From Candidatus Eremiobacteria bacterium (lineage in GTDB: Bacteria > Vulcanimicrobiota > Vulcanimicrobiia > Vulcanimicrobiales > Vulcanimicrobiaceae), in the NCBI GenBank assembly GCA_963737065.1, contig CAVTRC010000001.1:2048001-2112000 (forward strand): a DNA stretch of 64,000 nucleotides, in the 5' to 3' direction. Position 1 is the first letter of the stretch. Each line of letters begins with the position of its first letter. A program made the position numbers. This document shows, piece by piece, positions 42,001 to 51,000 of this stretch.

Positions 42001-45000
42001 CGTCAGTCTGACGCTCCTTTCGGTCGTTCCGTTTTTGTTGATGATGTGCTCGTCGTTCGTGCGCATCGTCGTCGTCCTCTCGCTCGTGCGCTCGGCGATC
42101 GGAACGTCGTCGCTTCCTCCAAACGCGGTTCTTTCGGGACTCGCTCTCGTGCTCACGTTCGTCGTCATGGCGCCGACATTCAGGCAGATTACACGCGACG
42201 CAATCGATCCGTACGCGCACGGCCGGCTTTCGCAATCGCAAGCGCTCGATCGCGCGACGCAGCCGCTTCGTGGCTTTATGTTGCGTCAGACACGCGTGAG
42301 CGATATCGAACTCTTCGAACGCGTTGCCCACGAACGTAGCGGCCCTCCGTCCACGGCGCCGCTGCTTGTCCTCGTGCCGGCGTTCGTGGTCGGCGAACTG
42401 CGCAGCGCGTTCGCGATCGGTTTCGCGCTGTATCTGCCGTTCGTCGCGATCGATTTGGCGGTTTCCGCAATGCTGATGGCACTCGGCATGATGATGCTCA
42501 GTCCGCCCGTCGTTTCATTGCCGGTGAAGCTGCTGCTTTTCGTCATGGTCGACGGCTGGGCGCTCGTGTGCGGAGGCGTGACCGCCTCATTTCGGTAAAG
42601 AAAGCCCATGCGAATCTCCGATGCGCTCGCGACGGTCCGGCCGTTCTTTTCGTTCGAATTCTTTCCGCCGAAGGACGATGCCGGATCGCAGCAACTCTTT
42701 GCCGCGATTGAAGCACTCGCGCCGCTTCGGCCCGCGTTCGTTTCGATCACGTACGGCGCGGGCGGATCATCGCGCCACCGTACCGTCGCGCTTGCGAAAC
42801 AAATTCAAGCCGAAATCGGACTGACGGTCATGGCGCATGTCACGTGCGTCGGCTCGTCACGCGCGGACCTGCGCGAACTCTTTGACGATCTCGCTGTCGC
42901 CGGCATCGAAAACGTCCTTGCTCTTCGCGGCGATCCGCCAAAAGGGGCAACCGAATTTAAAACGCCGCCCGGCGGCTTCTCGCATGCAACGGAACTGATC
43001 GCGATGCTGCGCCGCAACTACGATTTCTGCATCGGCGCCGCGTGTTATCCGGAAGTCCACGTGGAAGCGCCTGACGCAGACACCGATCTGCGCCATCTCA
43101 AAGAAAAAGTCGACGCGGGCGCCGAGTTCCTCATCACCCAACTGTTTTTCAACAACGACCGATTCGCCGCGTTCGACCGCCAAGCGCGGTCGCTCGGCAT
43201 CAACGTTCCGATTCTCCCGGGCTTGATGCCGATCACGAACTCCCAGCAAATCTCACGTTTCACGTCAGCGATTGGCGCAACAATTCCACCGAAGCTCCTA
43301 CGCGAGCTCGAGCTGCGCGCGCAAGACGGCAAAGCGGTGGAAGATCTCGGCGTGGCATACGCGGCGTTACAAGCCACGGAACTGCTGCAGCACGGCGCCG
43401 CCGGTATCCATTTCTACACGCTTAACCGCTCACCGGCGACACGCGCTATCGTCTCAGCACTGATAGCAGGCAGCGCGTGGCGTCCGCTATTCGCGCTTCG
43501 CTAGTTCGCAAGACCGCACGCGCTTACTCGATGTGAATGCCGAGCTCGGTTCGCAGCGTCATGTTTCCGTCTGACGTAATGTCGAGCGACCGGTCTCGCG
43601 GATTACGGCGGACCCACTGGTGTGCGACAAATCCATCCAGCAGCGCCGCGCCGAGCGCGCCGGCGACGTGGTGACGCCGCTCGGTCCAATCCATGCACGC
43701 GCGCGCGAAATGTCGACGGCTCGTCCGTACGCTGTCCAGATCGATTCCTATGTTGGCGAAGAACGATTCGCCGTTGCGCGTGATGGTAAACGTGTCGTCA
43801 CGCGGCGACAGGAAGCGGCGCCCGGTGAGCGCCTCCGTGACCGCAACGCCCAACCGCCCCGCGAGGTGATCGTAGCACGAGCGAGCGCGTCGAAGACGCT
43901 GCATTGCGGTGTGTTGGTTCAGCGAAGTCACCGGTGCGGCGGGCGCAATGGATGCAAGTACTTCGATGGCGTGCGCGATGTCGGGCGACGCTAAACGGAA
44001 CAGCCGCTGACGACCCGCGTTGCGCGCGGAGATCAACCCGCCGTCATTGAGTTTCGCAAGATGTGCGCTCGCCGCTTGCGGCGATGCATCGCCGCGAAAC
44101 GCCAGCTCGGAAGCGGTTCGTTCGCAGCCGTCCAGAAGTGCGAAGAGCATCTTCGCACGCACCGGATCGCCGATCAACGCCGCAACTTTCGCCACGTTTG
44201 GTAACATGGCGCGATTGTATCATGTCAATGCTTCAGGTCTGCGTGAAACGAGAGGTTCGCGAGCTTTCGATTTGCCGCCCCCGATCGCCCGGCGCGCGAG
44301 TTGGAAAACCGCCGTCGGATCCAGTTGCGCGCCACGCTGATGCTGTTCTTCGAACCATGCGTGCGAGTGACGCTCGGTGACGCTGCACACCACGTCCGCG
44401 CGCGCATCGCGCTCGGTCTCGATCAACGGGAACTTTAGGCGCAGCCGCAACGCGTCCACCCCGCCGAAGAGCTGCGCCGCGAGCTCGTCATCGCCGCGAT
44501 GGCAGAGCAGTCGTGCAGCGGCTTCAAGCGCGTCCGGCAGTTGCAGCGATAAATTGTGCTCCCGGATGATCGTCAGACTTTCGTCGATGCACCGTTCGGC
44601 TTCCGCGTAGTTCCCGTCGAGCAACTCGACCTCGGCAAGGTGATTCAAACCGCTCGTGATCAAGAAGTAGTATTGCATCGACCGTCCGATCGCAATCGAT
44701 TGTTTGTATTCATCGCGTGCGAGAGCGAGTTCGCCGCTCTGATGCGCGACGTTTCCGAGAGCGCCATGCGCCCACATCAACAGGAGACGATTGCCCGTTC
44801 GCTCGCACAACGTTATCGCTTCACCGGCCGCGTCGCGCGCGGAATCATACTCTCGCAAAGCCGTGTTGCAAAAGCTTAGGTTGATCAGGCACTTCGCGGT
44901 GGTGACGTGATCCGATCCTTCTTCGAAGATGTCAAGCGCGCGTACGAGCAACGACCGGCCGCGCTCGTGATCTCCGGTATTCATGACGATGCCGCCGAAC

Positions 45001-48000: not shown

Positions 48001-51000
48001 GAGCAGTTCGTCTTTTGTGGTCTTCTCTCGAATGGTATTGCAACCGCACGGACTCGATGACGGCGTGGCCGTCGCCTCGGCACCGGGTGCCGGATTGCCG
48101 CTCCCGGATCCGCCGTTGTTTGAGTTCACGGGCGCGGGCGGTGCCGGTGAACCGCCGCCGCATGCAACTAACGAACAAGATACACCCGCAATGAAAAGAA
48201 AAAGGACCAGAGCACGTCGGGACATGGGACGAGCCTCCGTCAAATAGACTGCCATGCTAACCGTAGCCCGCAGTGTACGCGTGCGTATCGTAACGAACGT
48301 CCCGATAGGTATAGGGCCTAAGGGGAACCGCTTGCTATGTGTCCGGCATCTCTATCGGGCGTTCGCGATGCGCGAGCAGCCAATCGGCGTTCTCGGATAA
48401 CGCTTCACGTGCAAGCGAACGGAATAGTGCGCGCGCGGCCTCCGGCTCCTGGTCTTCCCGCTGCAACATCTCCCGCAGCTCTTTCGCGGCCGAGCGGTAG
48501 AGGTCCGACATGCGCGCGTATTCGCGCGCGTGGTACGCCCATGCCGACCGATCGGCATACCCATGAATCAAGGCAGACAACGCCGCGAAAACCGATATAA
48601 AAAATATGATGAATTCGCGCGCGTGATCCACACGCAACGGCACCAGCTCGTTCGCGACCAGCGCGAGCGTTAAAATGCTCACCGCGAGAATCAATACGCC
48701 GCTCGCGCGCTGTGTGAGCGCGACGCGAGTTTCGTCACGCCTTTTCGCGCGCGCAAAAAAGCGCTGCTGATCTTCAACCCACGCCTCACGCGCATCGCGT
48801 GCGCGCTCGACCCATTGCTGCTCCTTCAGGTGACGTTCGGCATGCCACCCGTCATAGCGCGACGACGAGCGCAATGCTTTACGCACCCACTCGAGCTCCA
48901 CTTCATGCTTGCGTTCGTACAGCGCGCCGAGGTCGCTGCCGAGATCGAGTGCATTCCAAAATCGCTGGATTCGCAGCGCTTCGCTCAACGCCCGGTAGTC
49001 CTGACTTTTTGATTCATAGCGTCGAGCGCGCGCAGACGCCACGACGAAGAACGCGGCGGCGAACGAAATGAGGTTCGCGATGAGAAAGATAATGGGCGGA
49101 GCGCCCGAGCTCAGCGAGACGTCTAATTCGTATCCGAGGAGCGCTAACACCGCGGCCCCGATGAACGCAAAGGTGCAATCCAACGCGCGGTTCTGTTCTG
49201 CATGGAACCGCATCGCGAGTTCATCGGCAACTGCGAAAAGCGTTGGACGCGGCTGCACCGGAAAGTCGGCCTCGGCATCACGGTTGAATTCGTCGACACG
49301 CGACCACGTTGCCGGTTGCGGCATATGATGGGTTCGCGATATGCGCTGCTCGACGTTCGTCGAGCCGTTGCGTGAGACGATGATCCAATCAATCGGTTCG
49401 GTATTTGCGATGCGCGCGTCGACCACGTCGGCCGTCCCGCCCGCGCCGCGAGCGGGCAGACCGTCCCAGAGCGCGATCAGTAAATCGCTCGTACTCGCGA
49501 TAAAAGCGCCGAGTTCTGCATAGCGCTCGTCGTCTCCGATCGGCCCCGACGCGGTCGGTACGACGAAACTCGTCTTTGCTTGCGCAAGAAGCGCATCGAA
49601 CGATTCCAACGACCCCGGCGTCGTGAAGTCTTTTCGGTATTCATCAACACTCACCGGCAGCGGAACGATAAGTTCGAGCTCGAGCGCGAGCGCTGCCTCC
49701 GCGACGATCCGGTCGGCGCCCTCCGCGAGCGGTGAAAGCACAACGATCGGCGTGTGCGGATAATCGCGACCCAGTTGGCGTAGCCGCTCTGTCACTAAAT
49801 CTCGCGCCGCATCGACGTGCGCTTCCGCGACGTCCCGATGGCCGGTGACGCCGACAAGCAAGGGGATTGCGCCGTCTGAACTGGCCATTGATTCCTCGCG
49901 GACGTGAGGACGCGATATTCGCGCAATATTTTCGAAACGCCCGCACGATAGCGTCGGCGCATGGATGGGTTTGCGGGACTGCTACGCGAGGCAATGGTTT
50001 TGGCGGCGGTGCTCTGCGTGCCGGTGCTCGGTGTTGCGGCTCTCGTTGGAACCGCGATCGCGGTCGTGCAAGCCGCAACGCAAATACAGGAGCAAACGTT
50101 GACACTGCTTCCCAAGATGCTTGCCGTCGGCTTCACGATCGCGCTCTTCGGCGGCTTTGCGATGCACGCGTGCGAAGCGCTCTTCCACCACGCGCTCGAT
50201 GCGATTCCCGCACTCGTGTACGGCCCGTGACTGCCGCGTCGTTACTCGTTTTCGCGCGCTGCGCCGGCTTCGTCTTTCGCGCGCCGGGCTTTTCGCATCC
50301 GAGCGTTCCGCGCGCGCTTCGTGCCGGTCTCGCACTGGCGCTCGCCGCAGCGATCGCTCCCGGCGTTCACGTTCGAACGTTGGACGGCGCCGCCCTGATC
50401 GTCGGTGTCGCGACCGAATTTGCGCTCGGGACGGCGATCGGCATAGCGGCCTCGCTGTTGTATGACGGTGCGTATGCCGGCGGACGGATGTTGGACGACT
50501 ACGTCGGGGTGAAAGCGATTGCGCCGAACGTCGATCTTGTCGCGCCGAGCGGGTTCGGGCGGCTTTGGTCACTGGCATTTACCGGCGGATACTTTCTCTT
50601 CGGCGCATATGGCCCGGCCATATCGACGTTCGCCGCGAGTTTCGACCACATCGCACTCGGTGCGCCGTTCGACCCGCATGCATGGGAACCGTTTGCGATC
50701 TCGGTTGCAACGACGATCGTGACCGTAGCGGTTGCGGTTGCTGCACCGGCAGTTGCGCTCGCGTTCGTTACGCAGATTGCGCTTGCGGCGCTCGCGCGGA
50801 CGGTCCCGCGGTTCGCGACCTTCTCGCTTTCCTTTCCGGTCGTCTTCGGCGTCGTGCTGATCGTGACGGCGCTCTCCATTCCGATCGCCGTATCGCAGGC
50901 AGCGCATCCGTTCGTTCTCATTCCGGGCGTACGATGAGCGACGCATCAGAGAAGCAATTCGATGCCACACCGTCCCGCGTCGCAAAAGCACGCCGCGAGG

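Follow-up and report, generated by a model that had tools for sequence, protein, structure and literature searches.

Type I Thoeris pairs ThsB with ThsA, a SIR2-SLOG protein, and its signal is 3'cADPR. Plant TIR-NLRs make nucleotide signals, with a membrane channel at the end. SLATT stands for 'SMODS and SLOG-associating 2TM effector', and SLOG-SLATT and TIR-SLOG conflict systems were reportedly described, by in silico prediction only, by Burroughs, Zhang, Schaffer, Iyer and Aravind in Nucleic Acids Res in 2015. A later paper of the Burroughs/Aravind group presents SLATT as a membrane effector regulated by ADPr derivatives (PMC9503650). Type VII Thoeris combines a ThsB TIR protein with the SLATT effector ThsH and uses canonical cADPR as signal (bioRxiv 10.64898/2025.12.03.692087), and Shaseng comprises two TIR proteins and a SLATT protein (bioRxiv 10.1101/2024.12.27.630466). 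Both are anti-phage systems; immunity needs the TIR active site, and the effectors are described as SLATT proteins that lack any SLOG or Macro sensor. TIRs on bacterial STAND proteins are usually taken as NAD+-depleting effectors, which is why the 2025 survey dropped the TIRs of Avs proteins (bioRxiv 10.64898/2025.12.03.692087).

In this study, we analyse a window of 64,000 nucleotides from Candidatus Eremiobacteria, in which a TIR gene adjoins a gene for a SLATT-like membrane protein, as in type VII Thoeris and Shaseng. With moderate confidence we read the locus as Thoeris-like TIR signalling with a two-gene core, P0002 and P0004, acting through abortive infection at the membrane. The source bacterium dwells in soil. 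Its island of four ORFs, all on the minus strand and separated by 12, 64 and 79 bp, is flanked by metF and fliQ, the gene order being FliP, MTHFR (metF), island, FliQ, FliR, FlhB, FlhA. The positions that the genome-wide survey's note had given for the four ORFs were reproduced exactly:

42608..43504, plus strand: metF, left border of the variable site (MTHFR match 1.2e-91)
43524..44207, minus strand: P0001, ArsR/SmtB-type winged-helix regulator with C-terminal extension, 227 aa, optional island gene (NCBIfam HTH_metalloreg 9.6e-14)
44220..46931, minus strand: P0002, TIR-NB-ARC-TPR STAND protein, 903 aa, predicted sensor and signal synthase (Pfam, motifs)
45666..46355, minus strand: NB-ARC/STAND NTPase module of P0002, residues 193-422 (Pfam NB-ARC 5.3e-8)
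46554..46922, minus strand: TIR domain of P0002, residues 4-126, putative catalytic Glu E89 (TIR_2 8.5e-11)
46996..48255, minus strand: P0003, lipoprotein with Vgb-lyase/NHL-type beta-propeller, 419 aa (Vgb_lyase, lipobox)
48335..49888, minus strand: P0004, SLOG + 4-TM (SLATT-like) membrane protein, 517 aa, predicted signal-gated effector (ORF, translation, model)
48338..49240, minus strand: C-terminal helical membrane region of P0004, residues ~217-517 (hydropathy scan, domain model pLDDT 90.5)
49319..49867, minus strand: N-terminal SLOG domain of P0004, residues ~8-190, YpsA clade (VIA-align, Foldseek, invariant columns)
49961..50230, plus strand: fliQ, right border of the variable site (Bac_export_3 match 3.4e-21)

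The 3.08-Mb host genome has a single TIR gene and a single SLOG-SLATT gene, spaced 1.4 kb, and P0002 is its only TIR_2 match. The TIR_2, NB-ARC and TPR_12 domains reported for P0002 were found again (TPR_12 2.8e-19). Its NTPase motifs are intact, with Walker A GPGGVGKT at 199-206 and Walker B LLILDD at 268-273. The TIR motif is likewise intact: the putative catalytic Glu, which had been left unchecked, was located at E89, which a phmmer alignment places opposite SARM1 E642, the catalytic residue of that enzyme, and 52 of the 53 aligned TIRs keep Glu in this column. PADLOC returns ThsB for P0002 (2.4e-8) and its Avs models give no match at E<=0.1. P0002 shares with Avs/AVAST, other TIR-headed bacterial STANDs and plant TIR-NLRs a tripartite layout in which an enzyme at the head is joined to a STAND NTPase and a repeat sensor; TIRs of Avs/STAND proteins, the form found here, were those removed from the 2025 Thoeris survey. 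Bacterial TIR-headed STANDs are, however, taken to deplete NAD+ and to need no separate effector, unlike the present reading of P0002, and in type VII Thoeris and Shaseng the TIR is not fused to an NB-ARC-TPR STAND switch as it is here. The STAND-TPR chassis of P0002 has 6810 matches, with a cyclase, LuxR, SARP or kinase head elsewhere; mostly the head is a class III nucleotide cyclase, a second-messenger synthase, which counts for the Thoeris-like reading. So do some TIR-less loci where the P0004 homologue is paired with TPR-cyclase or DUF4062-NACHT-TPR proteins.

P0004 belongs to a full-length family with 241 matches at E<=1e-3 among 8000 candidates scored. Its model, built from a 28-row alignment (pLDDT 87.6, pTM 0.85), has a SLOG fold, and YpsA 2nx2 was again the top Foldseek match, as in the earlier survey (E 1.3e-5, TM on target 0.72). 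VIA-align superposes the SLOG domain on 2nx2 with Z 15.9 (rmsd 3.0, 158 residues), followed by DprA (12.2), ShosA (11.8), LOG (9.8), TRPM2 MHR1/2 (8.5) and ThsA (7.5). Invariant in the family are G16-H17, G57xD59-R60 and G150/T152. The GxD/E motif is given as a mark of YpsA-clade SLOG domains in PMC6459960, and in P0004 it corresponds to G57xD59, with no variation across the family. SLOG-type Pfam matches among the 28 members comprise YAcAr (4) and DprA (2).

The hydropathy scan of the membrane region reveals hydrophobic hairpins at 234-288 and 389-446. An invariant D297-Y298-R299 motif comes after the first of the two, which looks SLATT-like. Residues 234-317 match NCBIfam SLATT_1 below threshold (1.2e-4, 22 bits, cut-off 41 bits), and among 28 family members the region matches DUF4231 (14), SLATT_3 (5) and SLATT_5 (1). 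It counts against our reading that the SLATT assignment is based on sub-threshold sequence matches, that no solved structure resembles the membrane domain above helical background (best Z 9.2), and that no viral match was found at E<=0.001. PADLOC gives only noise for P0004 (E 0.02 and 0.053).

Compared with type VII Thoeris and Shaseng, P0004 differs in carrying a YpsA-clade SLOG ahead of its four-helix membrane region. With type I Thoeris it would share SLOG as receiver of a TIR-made signal, and its fold matches the ThsA SLOG (6lhx Z 7.5, 8bto Z 6.7), but Pfam finds no SIR2 domain in P0004, its SLOG is nearer YpsA, and its predicted output is a membrane domain and not an NADase. TRPM2-type ADPR-gated cation channels likewise join an N-terminal SLOG-like (MHR1/2) ADPR-binding domain to a membrane channel; TRPM2 MHR1/2 (9jje) matches over 160 residues, yet the membrane parts are unrelated, which makes this an analogy of design, not membership. 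The P0004 SLOG matches the ADPR-/cADPR-binding SLOG domains of both TRPM2 and ThsA.

P0001 had been called 'Csa3/CARF-like' from its PADLOC match (Csa3 1.1e-12), which over-reads a generic winged helix; an ArsR/SmtB-type regulator fits better and probably controls expression. G001 and G003 have its gene; G002 lacks it. P0003 carries a lipobox, LVAC with Cys32, read off the sequence, and a Vgb_lyase match below the cut-off (7.1e-11, 41.9 bits, cut-off 50 bits). PADLOC found nothing for P0003, as noted earlier. Five related loci also carry a lipoprotein gene. Outside the genus, no homologues of P0001 or P0003 were found beside the P0004 family, so the four-gene system proposed before is better cut to a core of two.

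The effector family shows a strong, phylum-spanning linkage to TIR genes. We compiled 88 loci with a P0004 homologue, 80 from contigs of other genomes and 8 from relatives outside the genus, with genes called by a crude longest-ORF heuristic and Pfam run on 110 of the 316 genes that lie one or two places away (+-1 and +-2). A TIR ORF lies within 3 kb of the homologue in half of them (44/88), across many phyla, and in 37 of the 62 whose flanks reach 3 kb or more in each direction; in 23 it is on the same strand and within 300 bp. The link is far stronger than the survey's 7 TIR proteins in 50 flanking ORFs had suggested. TIR domains number 38 within 3 kb (8.3 per 100 kb) versus 3 beyond 5 kb (0.51 per 100 kb), a ~16-fold higher density (binomial p 4.6e-11, the loci not being independent). 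Among 52 TIR profile ORFs, all 47 checked in Pfam contained TIR_2. TIR labels are scattered over the whole effector tree, in Eremiobacterota, Planctomycetota, Pseudomonadota, Acidobacteriota, Bacillota, Chlorobiota, Bacteroidota and Armatimonadota. Sensor parts on the partners vary (TPR, STAND+TPR, nSTAND1+WD40, Sel1, FHA, FGE), and many have no STAND part. A STAND NTPase is joined to the TIR, or encoded beside it, in the window as well as in L025, L026, L027, L028, L029, L032, L051, L071, L088, L106, L110 and L111. In one further locus, L036, a TIR-STING gene adjoins the homologue.

Within the genus, the island occurs at the same place in G001, G002 (with a tandem duplicate), G003 and G005, whereas metF abuts fliQ in G006 and on contig C144 of G004, which bears out the absence from G004 reported before. 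The 41 related genomes comprise 14 with both genes, 1 with just the effector (a fragment at a contig end), 4 with just TIR and 22 with neither (Fisher p 1.1e-6); counted by genus, the figures are 10/0/4/14 (p 7.6e-5). All four island genes are under purifying selection, with dN/dS of 0.09 for P0001, 0.09-0.13 for P0002, 0.09-0.19 for P0004 and 0.23-0.26 for P0003, the fastest-evolving of them. The low values of P0002 and P0004 at a dS of ~1-1.6, similar to flanking metF and flhB, argue for long co-inheritance.

Adjacency could also arise between two separate systems, both accessory genes at a variable site: P0002 would act on its own as an Avs/NLR-like abortive-infection protein, its TIR simply depleting NAD+, and P0004 would answer independently to another signal. 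The treatment of STAND TIR heads as NADase effectors, the ground for their exclusion from the Thoeris survey, speaks for this, as do the 44 loci, 25 of which have full flanks, where no TIR lies within 3 kb. In Bacteroidota/Ignavibacteriota whole clades have the effector next to housekeeping genes. Effector and TIR genes are non-adjacent in G016, on the same or other contigs, and contig C66 of G004 bears other cargo at the metF-fliQ site. We nevertheless regard two separate systems as quite unlikely, for they leave unexplained the TIR concentration beside the effector in at least 8 phyla, the unrelated and often STAND-less TIR architectures beside one effector family, and the genome co-occurrence. 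The SLOG domain might instead be an enzyme processing the TIR product or another nucleotide by LOG-like N-glycosidase chemistry, with the membrane part as anchor. LOG-type hydrolases belong to the SLOG superfamily, LOG is among the structural matches, and the conserved polar H17, R18, D59, R60 and T152 could be catalytic. This is very unlikely, as the nearest fold is YpsA and the residue two after T152, at the site of the LOG catalytic Glu, differs among family members (D, E, Q, H); moreover, the membrane region is conserved as strongly as SLOG with invariants of its own (D297-Y298-R299, W334, W503, R508), which does not fit a mere anchor.

A physiological, non-immune pathway, in which a STAND/TPR receptor for an endogenous or environmental cue has its TIR-made nucleotide gate an ion-conducting membrane protein, we consider unlikely. 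It would suit a chassis common to thousands of cyclase-, LuxR-, SARP-, kinase- or HTH-headed signalling proteins without known immune role, an island kept vertically in the genus at saturating dS, and the TRPM2-like layout. The GC content of the island resembles its surroundings, no marks of mobile elements were seen there, and no recognisable defence island surrounds the locus, where PADLOC models match only a HIRAN-DEAD helicase, 7 kb off, in the window. Against it stand the patchy presence (4/6 other genomes of the genus, 10/28 genera), the tandem duplicate and the highly variable partner sensors, all typical of conflict systems, and the related TIR+SLATT pairs, validated as anti-phage systems.

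For the Thoeris-like reading of P0002 and P0004, novelty is limited: the survey's claim relied on the 2023 PADLOC, but TIR+SLATT systems have since been validated in type VII Thoeris and Shaseng, and a SLOG-effector type III has also been named. The proposed route from TIR signal through SLOG sensing to a SLATT effector has stronger comparative support than the survey's note had claimed, while we infer the defence role and the signal itself. Beyond the established domain architectures, SLOG fold and intact TIR and NTPase motifs, P0002 would be an NLR-like STAND switch of NB-ARC NTPase, TPR sensor and N-terminal TIR. Most likely a phage component would hit its TPR/STAND part, whereupon the TIR domains would assemble and turn NAD+ into an ADP-ribose-derived signal, acting as signal synthase and not just as NAD+ depleter. 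P0004 probably senses this small-molecule product and opens the membrane: its cytoplasmic YpsA-clade SLOG would bind the signal and switch the attached four-helix SLATT-type domain, which may, as a pore, permeabilise or depolarise the inner membrane and so halt the infected cell by abortive infection.

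The island consists of four open reading frames, all on the minus strand, and ORF calling confirmed the coordinates given for them in the genome-wide survey's note exactly:

Window 43524-44207, minus strand: P0001, 227-aa ORF, winged-helix (HTH) protein
Window 44220-46931, minus strand: P0002, 903-aa ORF, TIR-NB-ARC-TPR protein
Window 46996-48255, minus strand: P0003, 419-aa ORF, lipoprotein with propeller match
Window 48335-49888, minus strand: P0004, 517-aa ORF, SLOG domain followed by a SLATT-like membrane domain, hereafter the effector

The intergenic gaps measure 12, 64 and 79 bp, which makes a single transcription unit in the order P0004 -> P0003 -> P0002 -> P0001 plausible. 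Simple scans for promoter and terminator signals at the island returned none above chance.

P0002 has the domains that had been described for it. Pfam reveals TIR_2 at residues 4-126 (8.5e-11), NB-ARC at residues 193-422 (5.3e-8) and TPR_12 (2.8e-19). The NTPase motifs are intact, with Walker A GPGGVGKT at 199-206 and Walker B LLILDD at 268-273, and P0002 thus shows the build of an NB-ARC-type STAND NTPase, i.e. an NB-ARC domain with both Walker motifs followed by repeats. The closest solved structure to its TIR domain is human SARM1 (phmmer, E 7.6e-4). In the phmmer alignment E89 of P0002 stands opposite SARM1 E642, the catalytic residue of that protein, and of 53 TIRs aligned, 52 have Glu in this putative catalytic column. 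The glutamate, which the earlier survey had left unchecked, is therefore present, and a TIR with catalytic glutamate is general to Thoeris systems. Among the PADLOC 2023 models P0002 matches only ThsB-TIR, mad8, TPR and MkoA; no Avs model was matched at E<=0.1. The heads carried by the NB-ARC-TPR chassis were surveyed with residues 1-600 as query (6810 matches). Most often the head is a class III nucleotide cyclase, or it is LuxR, SARP or a kinase, and TIR-headed forms are a minority among the homologues. The TIR of P0002 thus occupies the usual position of a second-messenger synthase, which fits a signalling role and is equally compatible with signal transduction outside immunity.

P0004 belongs to a family that has no name. 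When 5.8 billion clustered proteins were searched, 241 of the 8000 candidates scored proved to be full-length-type relatives, none of them bearing a functional name, and the clusters of the family in the Atlas are all labelled 'hypothetical protein'. No family match of P0004 itself is above threshold (NCBIfam SLATT_1 22 bits vs 41, Pfam DUF4231 E 0.034), and the family profile found no match among PDB sequences at E<=1. An alignment of 28 family sequences was the basis for both the invariant residues and an AlphaFold model. Invariant are G16-H17 within GVTGHR, L54, A55, G57, D59 and R60 within LAEGADR, G150 and T152 within GGT and, in the C-terminal part, D297-Y298-R299, W334, W503 and R508. 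The model (pLDDT 87.6, pTM 0.85) has an alpha/beta domain at 8-190 and long helices at 217-517. The YpsA-type SLOG fold proposed for the N-terminal domain was reproduced with two methods. Bacillus subtilis YpsA (2nx2) is the best match in Foldseek (E 1.3e-5, TM on target 0.72), followed by DprA, ShosA, LOG, MCP and the ThsA SLOG domain. It also leads in a second aligner (Z 15.9, rmsd 3.0 over 158 residues), before DprA (Z 12.2), ShosA (11.8), MCP (11.2), LOG (9.8), TRPM2 MHR1/2 (8.5) and ThsA (7.5). A Rossmannoid SLOG fold closer to YpsA than to DprA assigns P0004 to the YpsA clade. According to one analysis, this clade is marked by a GxD/E substrate-binding motif (PMC6459960). Judged from the alignment, the motif would correspond to G57xD59 of P0004, invariant in all 28 sequences. 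The family has a well defined candidate ligand pocket.

Hydrophobic hairpins occur twice in the helical region of P0004, the first at 234-288 and the second at 389-446. When each of the 28 family members was scanned singly in Pfam, DUF4231 was matched by 14, SLATT_3 by five, SLATT_5 by one, YAcAr by four and DprA by two. BFVD gave three weak matches of the membrane domain to SLATT-named proteins (E 0.4-1.1). Modelled alone, the domain reached a pLDDT of 90.5. Among 48,161 PDB representatives it had no convincing relative, the matches being generic helical hairpins whose best Z of 9.2 is helical background, and the viral model library contained no match at E<=0.001. Taking structure and family matches together, the SLOG assignment is firm, and the SLATT assignment of the membrane domain is likely but sub-threshold. 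Residues 205-350 and 351-517 aligned over 74 columns in hhalign (probability 14%, E 0.0019), a hint only that a 2TM module may have been duplicated within P0004.

The effector family is large, with at least 561 genes in the genome collection (561 of the 600 pattern matches listed encode a relative). We compared 88 loci, 80 from contigs of one genome per species and eight from relatives outside the genus, with genes called by a crude longest-ORF heuristic. A Pfam scan covered the first 110 of 316 neighbours at positions +-1 and +-2; from its TIR hits a profile was built and run over all ORFs of all loci. The profile detected 52 ORFs in 46 loci, and TIR_2 was present in 47 of 47 checked in Pfam. 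Of the 88 loci, 44 have a TIR ORF no more than 3 kb from the effector gene; the figure is 37 of 62 if both flanks are required to extend for 3 kb or more. A same-strand TIR ORF no more than 300 bp away occurs in 23 loci. Up to 3 kb from the effector gene we counted 38 TIR domains, or 8.3 per 100 kb, and at distances above 5 kb three, or 0.51 per 100 kb, a 16-fold enrichment (binomial p 4.6e-11, over loci that are related to one another). The association, a weak point when it amounted to seven TIR proteins among 50 flanking ORFs, is thereby substantiated, and a conserved effector that adjoins a TIR and bears a ligand-sensing domain is again general to Thoeris.

A FastTree phylogeny built from 78 effectors shows TIR-linked members in all parts of the tree and in at least eight phyla, with TIR-less loci concentrated in Bacteroidota and Ignavibacteriota; P0004 of the window sits on a long branch whose exact place is unsure. 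In the genome to which the window belongs, 3.08 Mb in size and 95% complete, TIR_2 and SLOG-SLATT are matched exactly once each, 1.4 kb apart. Among 41 related genomes, counting two unpublished ones (G014 with both genes, G036 with the TIR only), 14 have both genes, one has the effector only (G038, a contig-end fragment), four have the TIR only and 22 have neither (Fisher p 1.1e-6 by genome). Counted by genus, the respective numbers are 10, 0, 4 and 14 (Fisher p 7.6e-5). It is well supported that P0002 and P0004 are a core pair and form a functional unit.

The partners of the effector are diverse. TIR-STAND-TPR proteins are found in L025, L026, L027, L088, L106 and L110 (L-numbers denote loci with P0004 homologues), and a TIR-nSTAND1-WD40 protein in L111; in L028, L029, L032 and L051 nSTAND1-WD40 is encoded by a gene of its own that follows the TIR gene. 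The TIR-NB-ARC-TPR form of the window is thus recurrent. Notable cases are further genera of this bacterial family, whose effectors and TIR-STAND proteins both share about 30% identity with those of the window. Other TIR partners comprise TIR-TPR, TIR-Sel1, TIR-FHA, TIR-VHL, TIR-FGE-sulfatase, SIR2-TIR and double TIR-AAA_35. At L025:12611-15829 a single partner protein of 1072 aa contains TIR, AAA_22 and TPR together with a weak match to class III cyclase (6e-6), so that its STAND chassis bears two heads that could each make a signal. TIR-less loci encode DUF4062-NACHT-TPR (L060, L082), DUF4062-TPR (L112) or a TPR-cyclase partner (L070). DUF4062 is a putative TIR relative; in hhalign just 10 columns of the three DUF4062 heads aligned with our own TIR alignment. 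In two further TIR-less loci, L075:10765-12666 and L087:10771-12693, from Chthoniobacterales and a Verrucomicrobiae genome, a stand-alone SLOG gene of about 280 aa adjoins a TPR-S protein with class III cyclase. This arrangement amounts to the sensor being split off or wired in another way. RyR-domain proteins adjoin the SLOG-SLATT gene at L036:1015-1314, L037:2546-4651 and L076:5842-7518. The first is a free 99-aa protein beside a TIR-STING gene, which itself adjoins the effector and was missed by the TIR profile; the other two are longer, with a C-terminal RyR domain.

The genome-wide survey's note had described a four-gene island. The pair of TIR and effector is linked across loci; P0001 and P0003 are without homologues beside the effector in the 88 loci, bar weak propeller repeats in L026 and L100, and are ruled out as conserved effector partners. 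P0001 had been called a Csa3/CARF-like HTH protein. It does match the PADLOC Csa3 model, but the match is limited to the winged helix, which is of ArsR/SmtB type (NCBIfam 9.6e-14) and is followed by a C-terminal extension. P0003 carries a lipoprotein signal (lipobox LVAC, Cys32) and matches the Vgb-lyase/NHL propeller in Pfam with 41.9 bits vs a cut-off of 50. A gene with lipoprotein signal is located between or beside the core genes in five of five TIR-linked loci of this bacterial family:

Lipoprotein genes at TIR-linked loci of the family (lipoboxes of the four L loci assigned by listed order)
Window 46996-48255: lipoprotein gene, lipobox LVAC
L025:11052-12596: lipoprotein gene, lipobox LAAC
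L026:6440-9139: lipoprotein gene, lipobox MSAC
L027:10923-11495: lipoprotein gene, lipobox LAQC
L031:12777-14420: lipoprotein gene, lipobox LTAC

The five lipoproteins are mutually unrelated, bar propeller repeats common to the window and L026. As background, the lipobox pattern occurs in 91 of 2757 crude gene calls of this genome (3.3%) and in 29 of 995 neighbours across all loci. Because the five loci possibly share a common ancestry, the recurrence of a lipoprotein beside the core pair is a lead and not a result.

The island is flanked by fliP and metF on one side and by fliQ, fliR, flhB and flhA on the other, metF itself being placed between fliP and fliQ. Its GC content (0.58-0.64) is that of its surroundings, and a search for flanking direct repeats found none. 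Within the genus, the genomes G001, G002, G003 and G005 carry the island at the same metF-fliQ site. In G002 the HTH gene is missing and a second effector copy stands in tandem (L024, contig C17, 8289-9947 and 9982-11541; 67% and 51% identical to P0004 of the window). In G006, metF directly abuts fliQ. The absence of the island from the site in G004, claimed earlier, holds for contig C144, where metF and fliQ are contiguous; contig C66 of the same genome carries different cargo there, a short-chain-dehydrogenase-like ORF and a 339-aa lipoprotein (L116, 4905-6806). The metF-fliQ junction is thus a variable spot within the flagellar-type export cluster. Pairwise dN/dS against the window is 0.09 for the HTH gene, 0.09-0.13 for the TIR-STAND gene, 0.09-0.19 for the effector and 0.23-0.26 for the lipoprotein, and 0.04-0.05 and 0.10-0.15 for the flanking metF and flhB. 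At the dS of about 1-2 seen for all compared island and flank genes, these values show that all four island genes are functional and long co-inherited. Rather than a recent insertion, the island is an accessory block of long standing in a variable position. Seven kb downstream, at 56683-58743, a 686-aa HIRAN and DEAD/Helicase_C protein matches the PADLOC helicase models DpdF (5.6e-69) and PsyrT (7.8e-57), the sole other defence-like match among the window ORFs scanned with PADLOC. Within the export cluster, at 37852-39513, an ORF of 553 aa encodes two aspartyl protease domains of the retropepsin-like type (Asp_protease_2, 4.6e-21) and adjoins the T3SS-type ATPase gene.

SLOG-SLATT fusions were reportedly predicted by the Aravind group in 2015. 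The pair had been described as absent from the known systems of PADLOC. PADLOC 2023 indeed has no model for the effector and gives the partners domain-level TIR matches alone, but a combination of TIR and SLATT has since been validated in print. A December 2024 preprint validated Shaseng, consisting of two TIRs and a SLATT protein, and describes SLATT effectors as being without SLOG or Macro sensors (10.1101/2024.12.27.630466). A December 2025 preprint defines Thoeris types I-XI and gives 29 putative types, leaving the TIRs of Avs proteins out of its data set; type VII pairs a TIR with the SLATT effector ThsH and signals through canonical cADPR (10.64898/2025.12.03.692087). The effector of type VII and Shaseng is a SLATT-domain membrane protein; P0004 probably carries such a domain, with a SLATT_1 match that is sub-threshold. 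Type III, as summarised in the same preprint, has several TIRs and a SLOG effector (10.64898/2025.12.03.692087); with one TIR_2 match in the window's genome, an NCBIfam ThcB4 match of 41 bits vs a cut-off of 220 and no Thoeris model matched by P0004, the island lies outside type III by that summary. The type I effector joins a SIR2 NADase to SLOG, whereas P0004 has no SIR2 family match at E<=0.1 and ends, in the model, in a bundle of membrane helices. A paper by the Aravind group speaks of TIR-SLOG antiviral systems and of SLATT as a membrane effector regulated by ADPr derivatives (PMC9503650). We class the island as a Thoeris-like system, its TIR being of the NLR type and its composite effector a SLOG domain joined to a probable SLATT domain; it is no new category.

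The best-supported reading of this system is a role in defence; whereas architecture, motifs, fold, linkage and selection are shown by the data, this role and each biochemical step of the following route are inferred. A trigger, by analogy a phage protein, would be sensed by the TPR/STAND module of P0002, whose NTP-dependent oligomerisation would gather the TIR domains. These would convert NAD+ to an ADP-ribose-derived signal, and upon binding of the signal by the SLOG domain of P0004 the four-helix region would permeabilise the membrane. Tentatively, and as a possibility rather than a probability, the island may represent an unvalidated Thoeris type, in which an NLR-like STAND controls a TIR synthase that signals rather than kills. 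The signal would be received by a four-helix membrane channel that is gated by ligand through a SLOG sensor of the YpsA clade. Such a system would parallel, in prokaryotes, both ADPR-gated TRPM2 and the plant route that leads from TIR-NLR via nucleotide to membrane channel. The fast-evolving lipoprotein encoded between both genes would be a third, extracytoplasmic component in this bacterial family.

Other readings of the same data are less probable. A non-immune physiological pathway is unlikely, yet the least improbable of these alternatives. Slightly less credible still are two independent systems with the P0002 TIR as NAD+ depleter. That the SLOG domain of P0004 is an enzyme we regard as improbable, and as the weakest of the three.

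For bacterial NLR-like proteins that bear a TIR head, the usual assumption is that they kill through NAD+ consumption. If the pair of P0002 and P0004 works as proposed, the TIR-NLR would instead be the signal maker for a separate membrane effector, which is the logic of plant TIR-NLRs. This possible signalling is the main interest of the island, and the recurrent lipoprotein gene is secondary to it. Large, unnamed and with a candidate ligand pocket, the effector family lends itself to testing which derivative of ADP-ribose is read by a SLOG domain of the YpsA clade, and also how a SLATT-type domain may breach the membrane.
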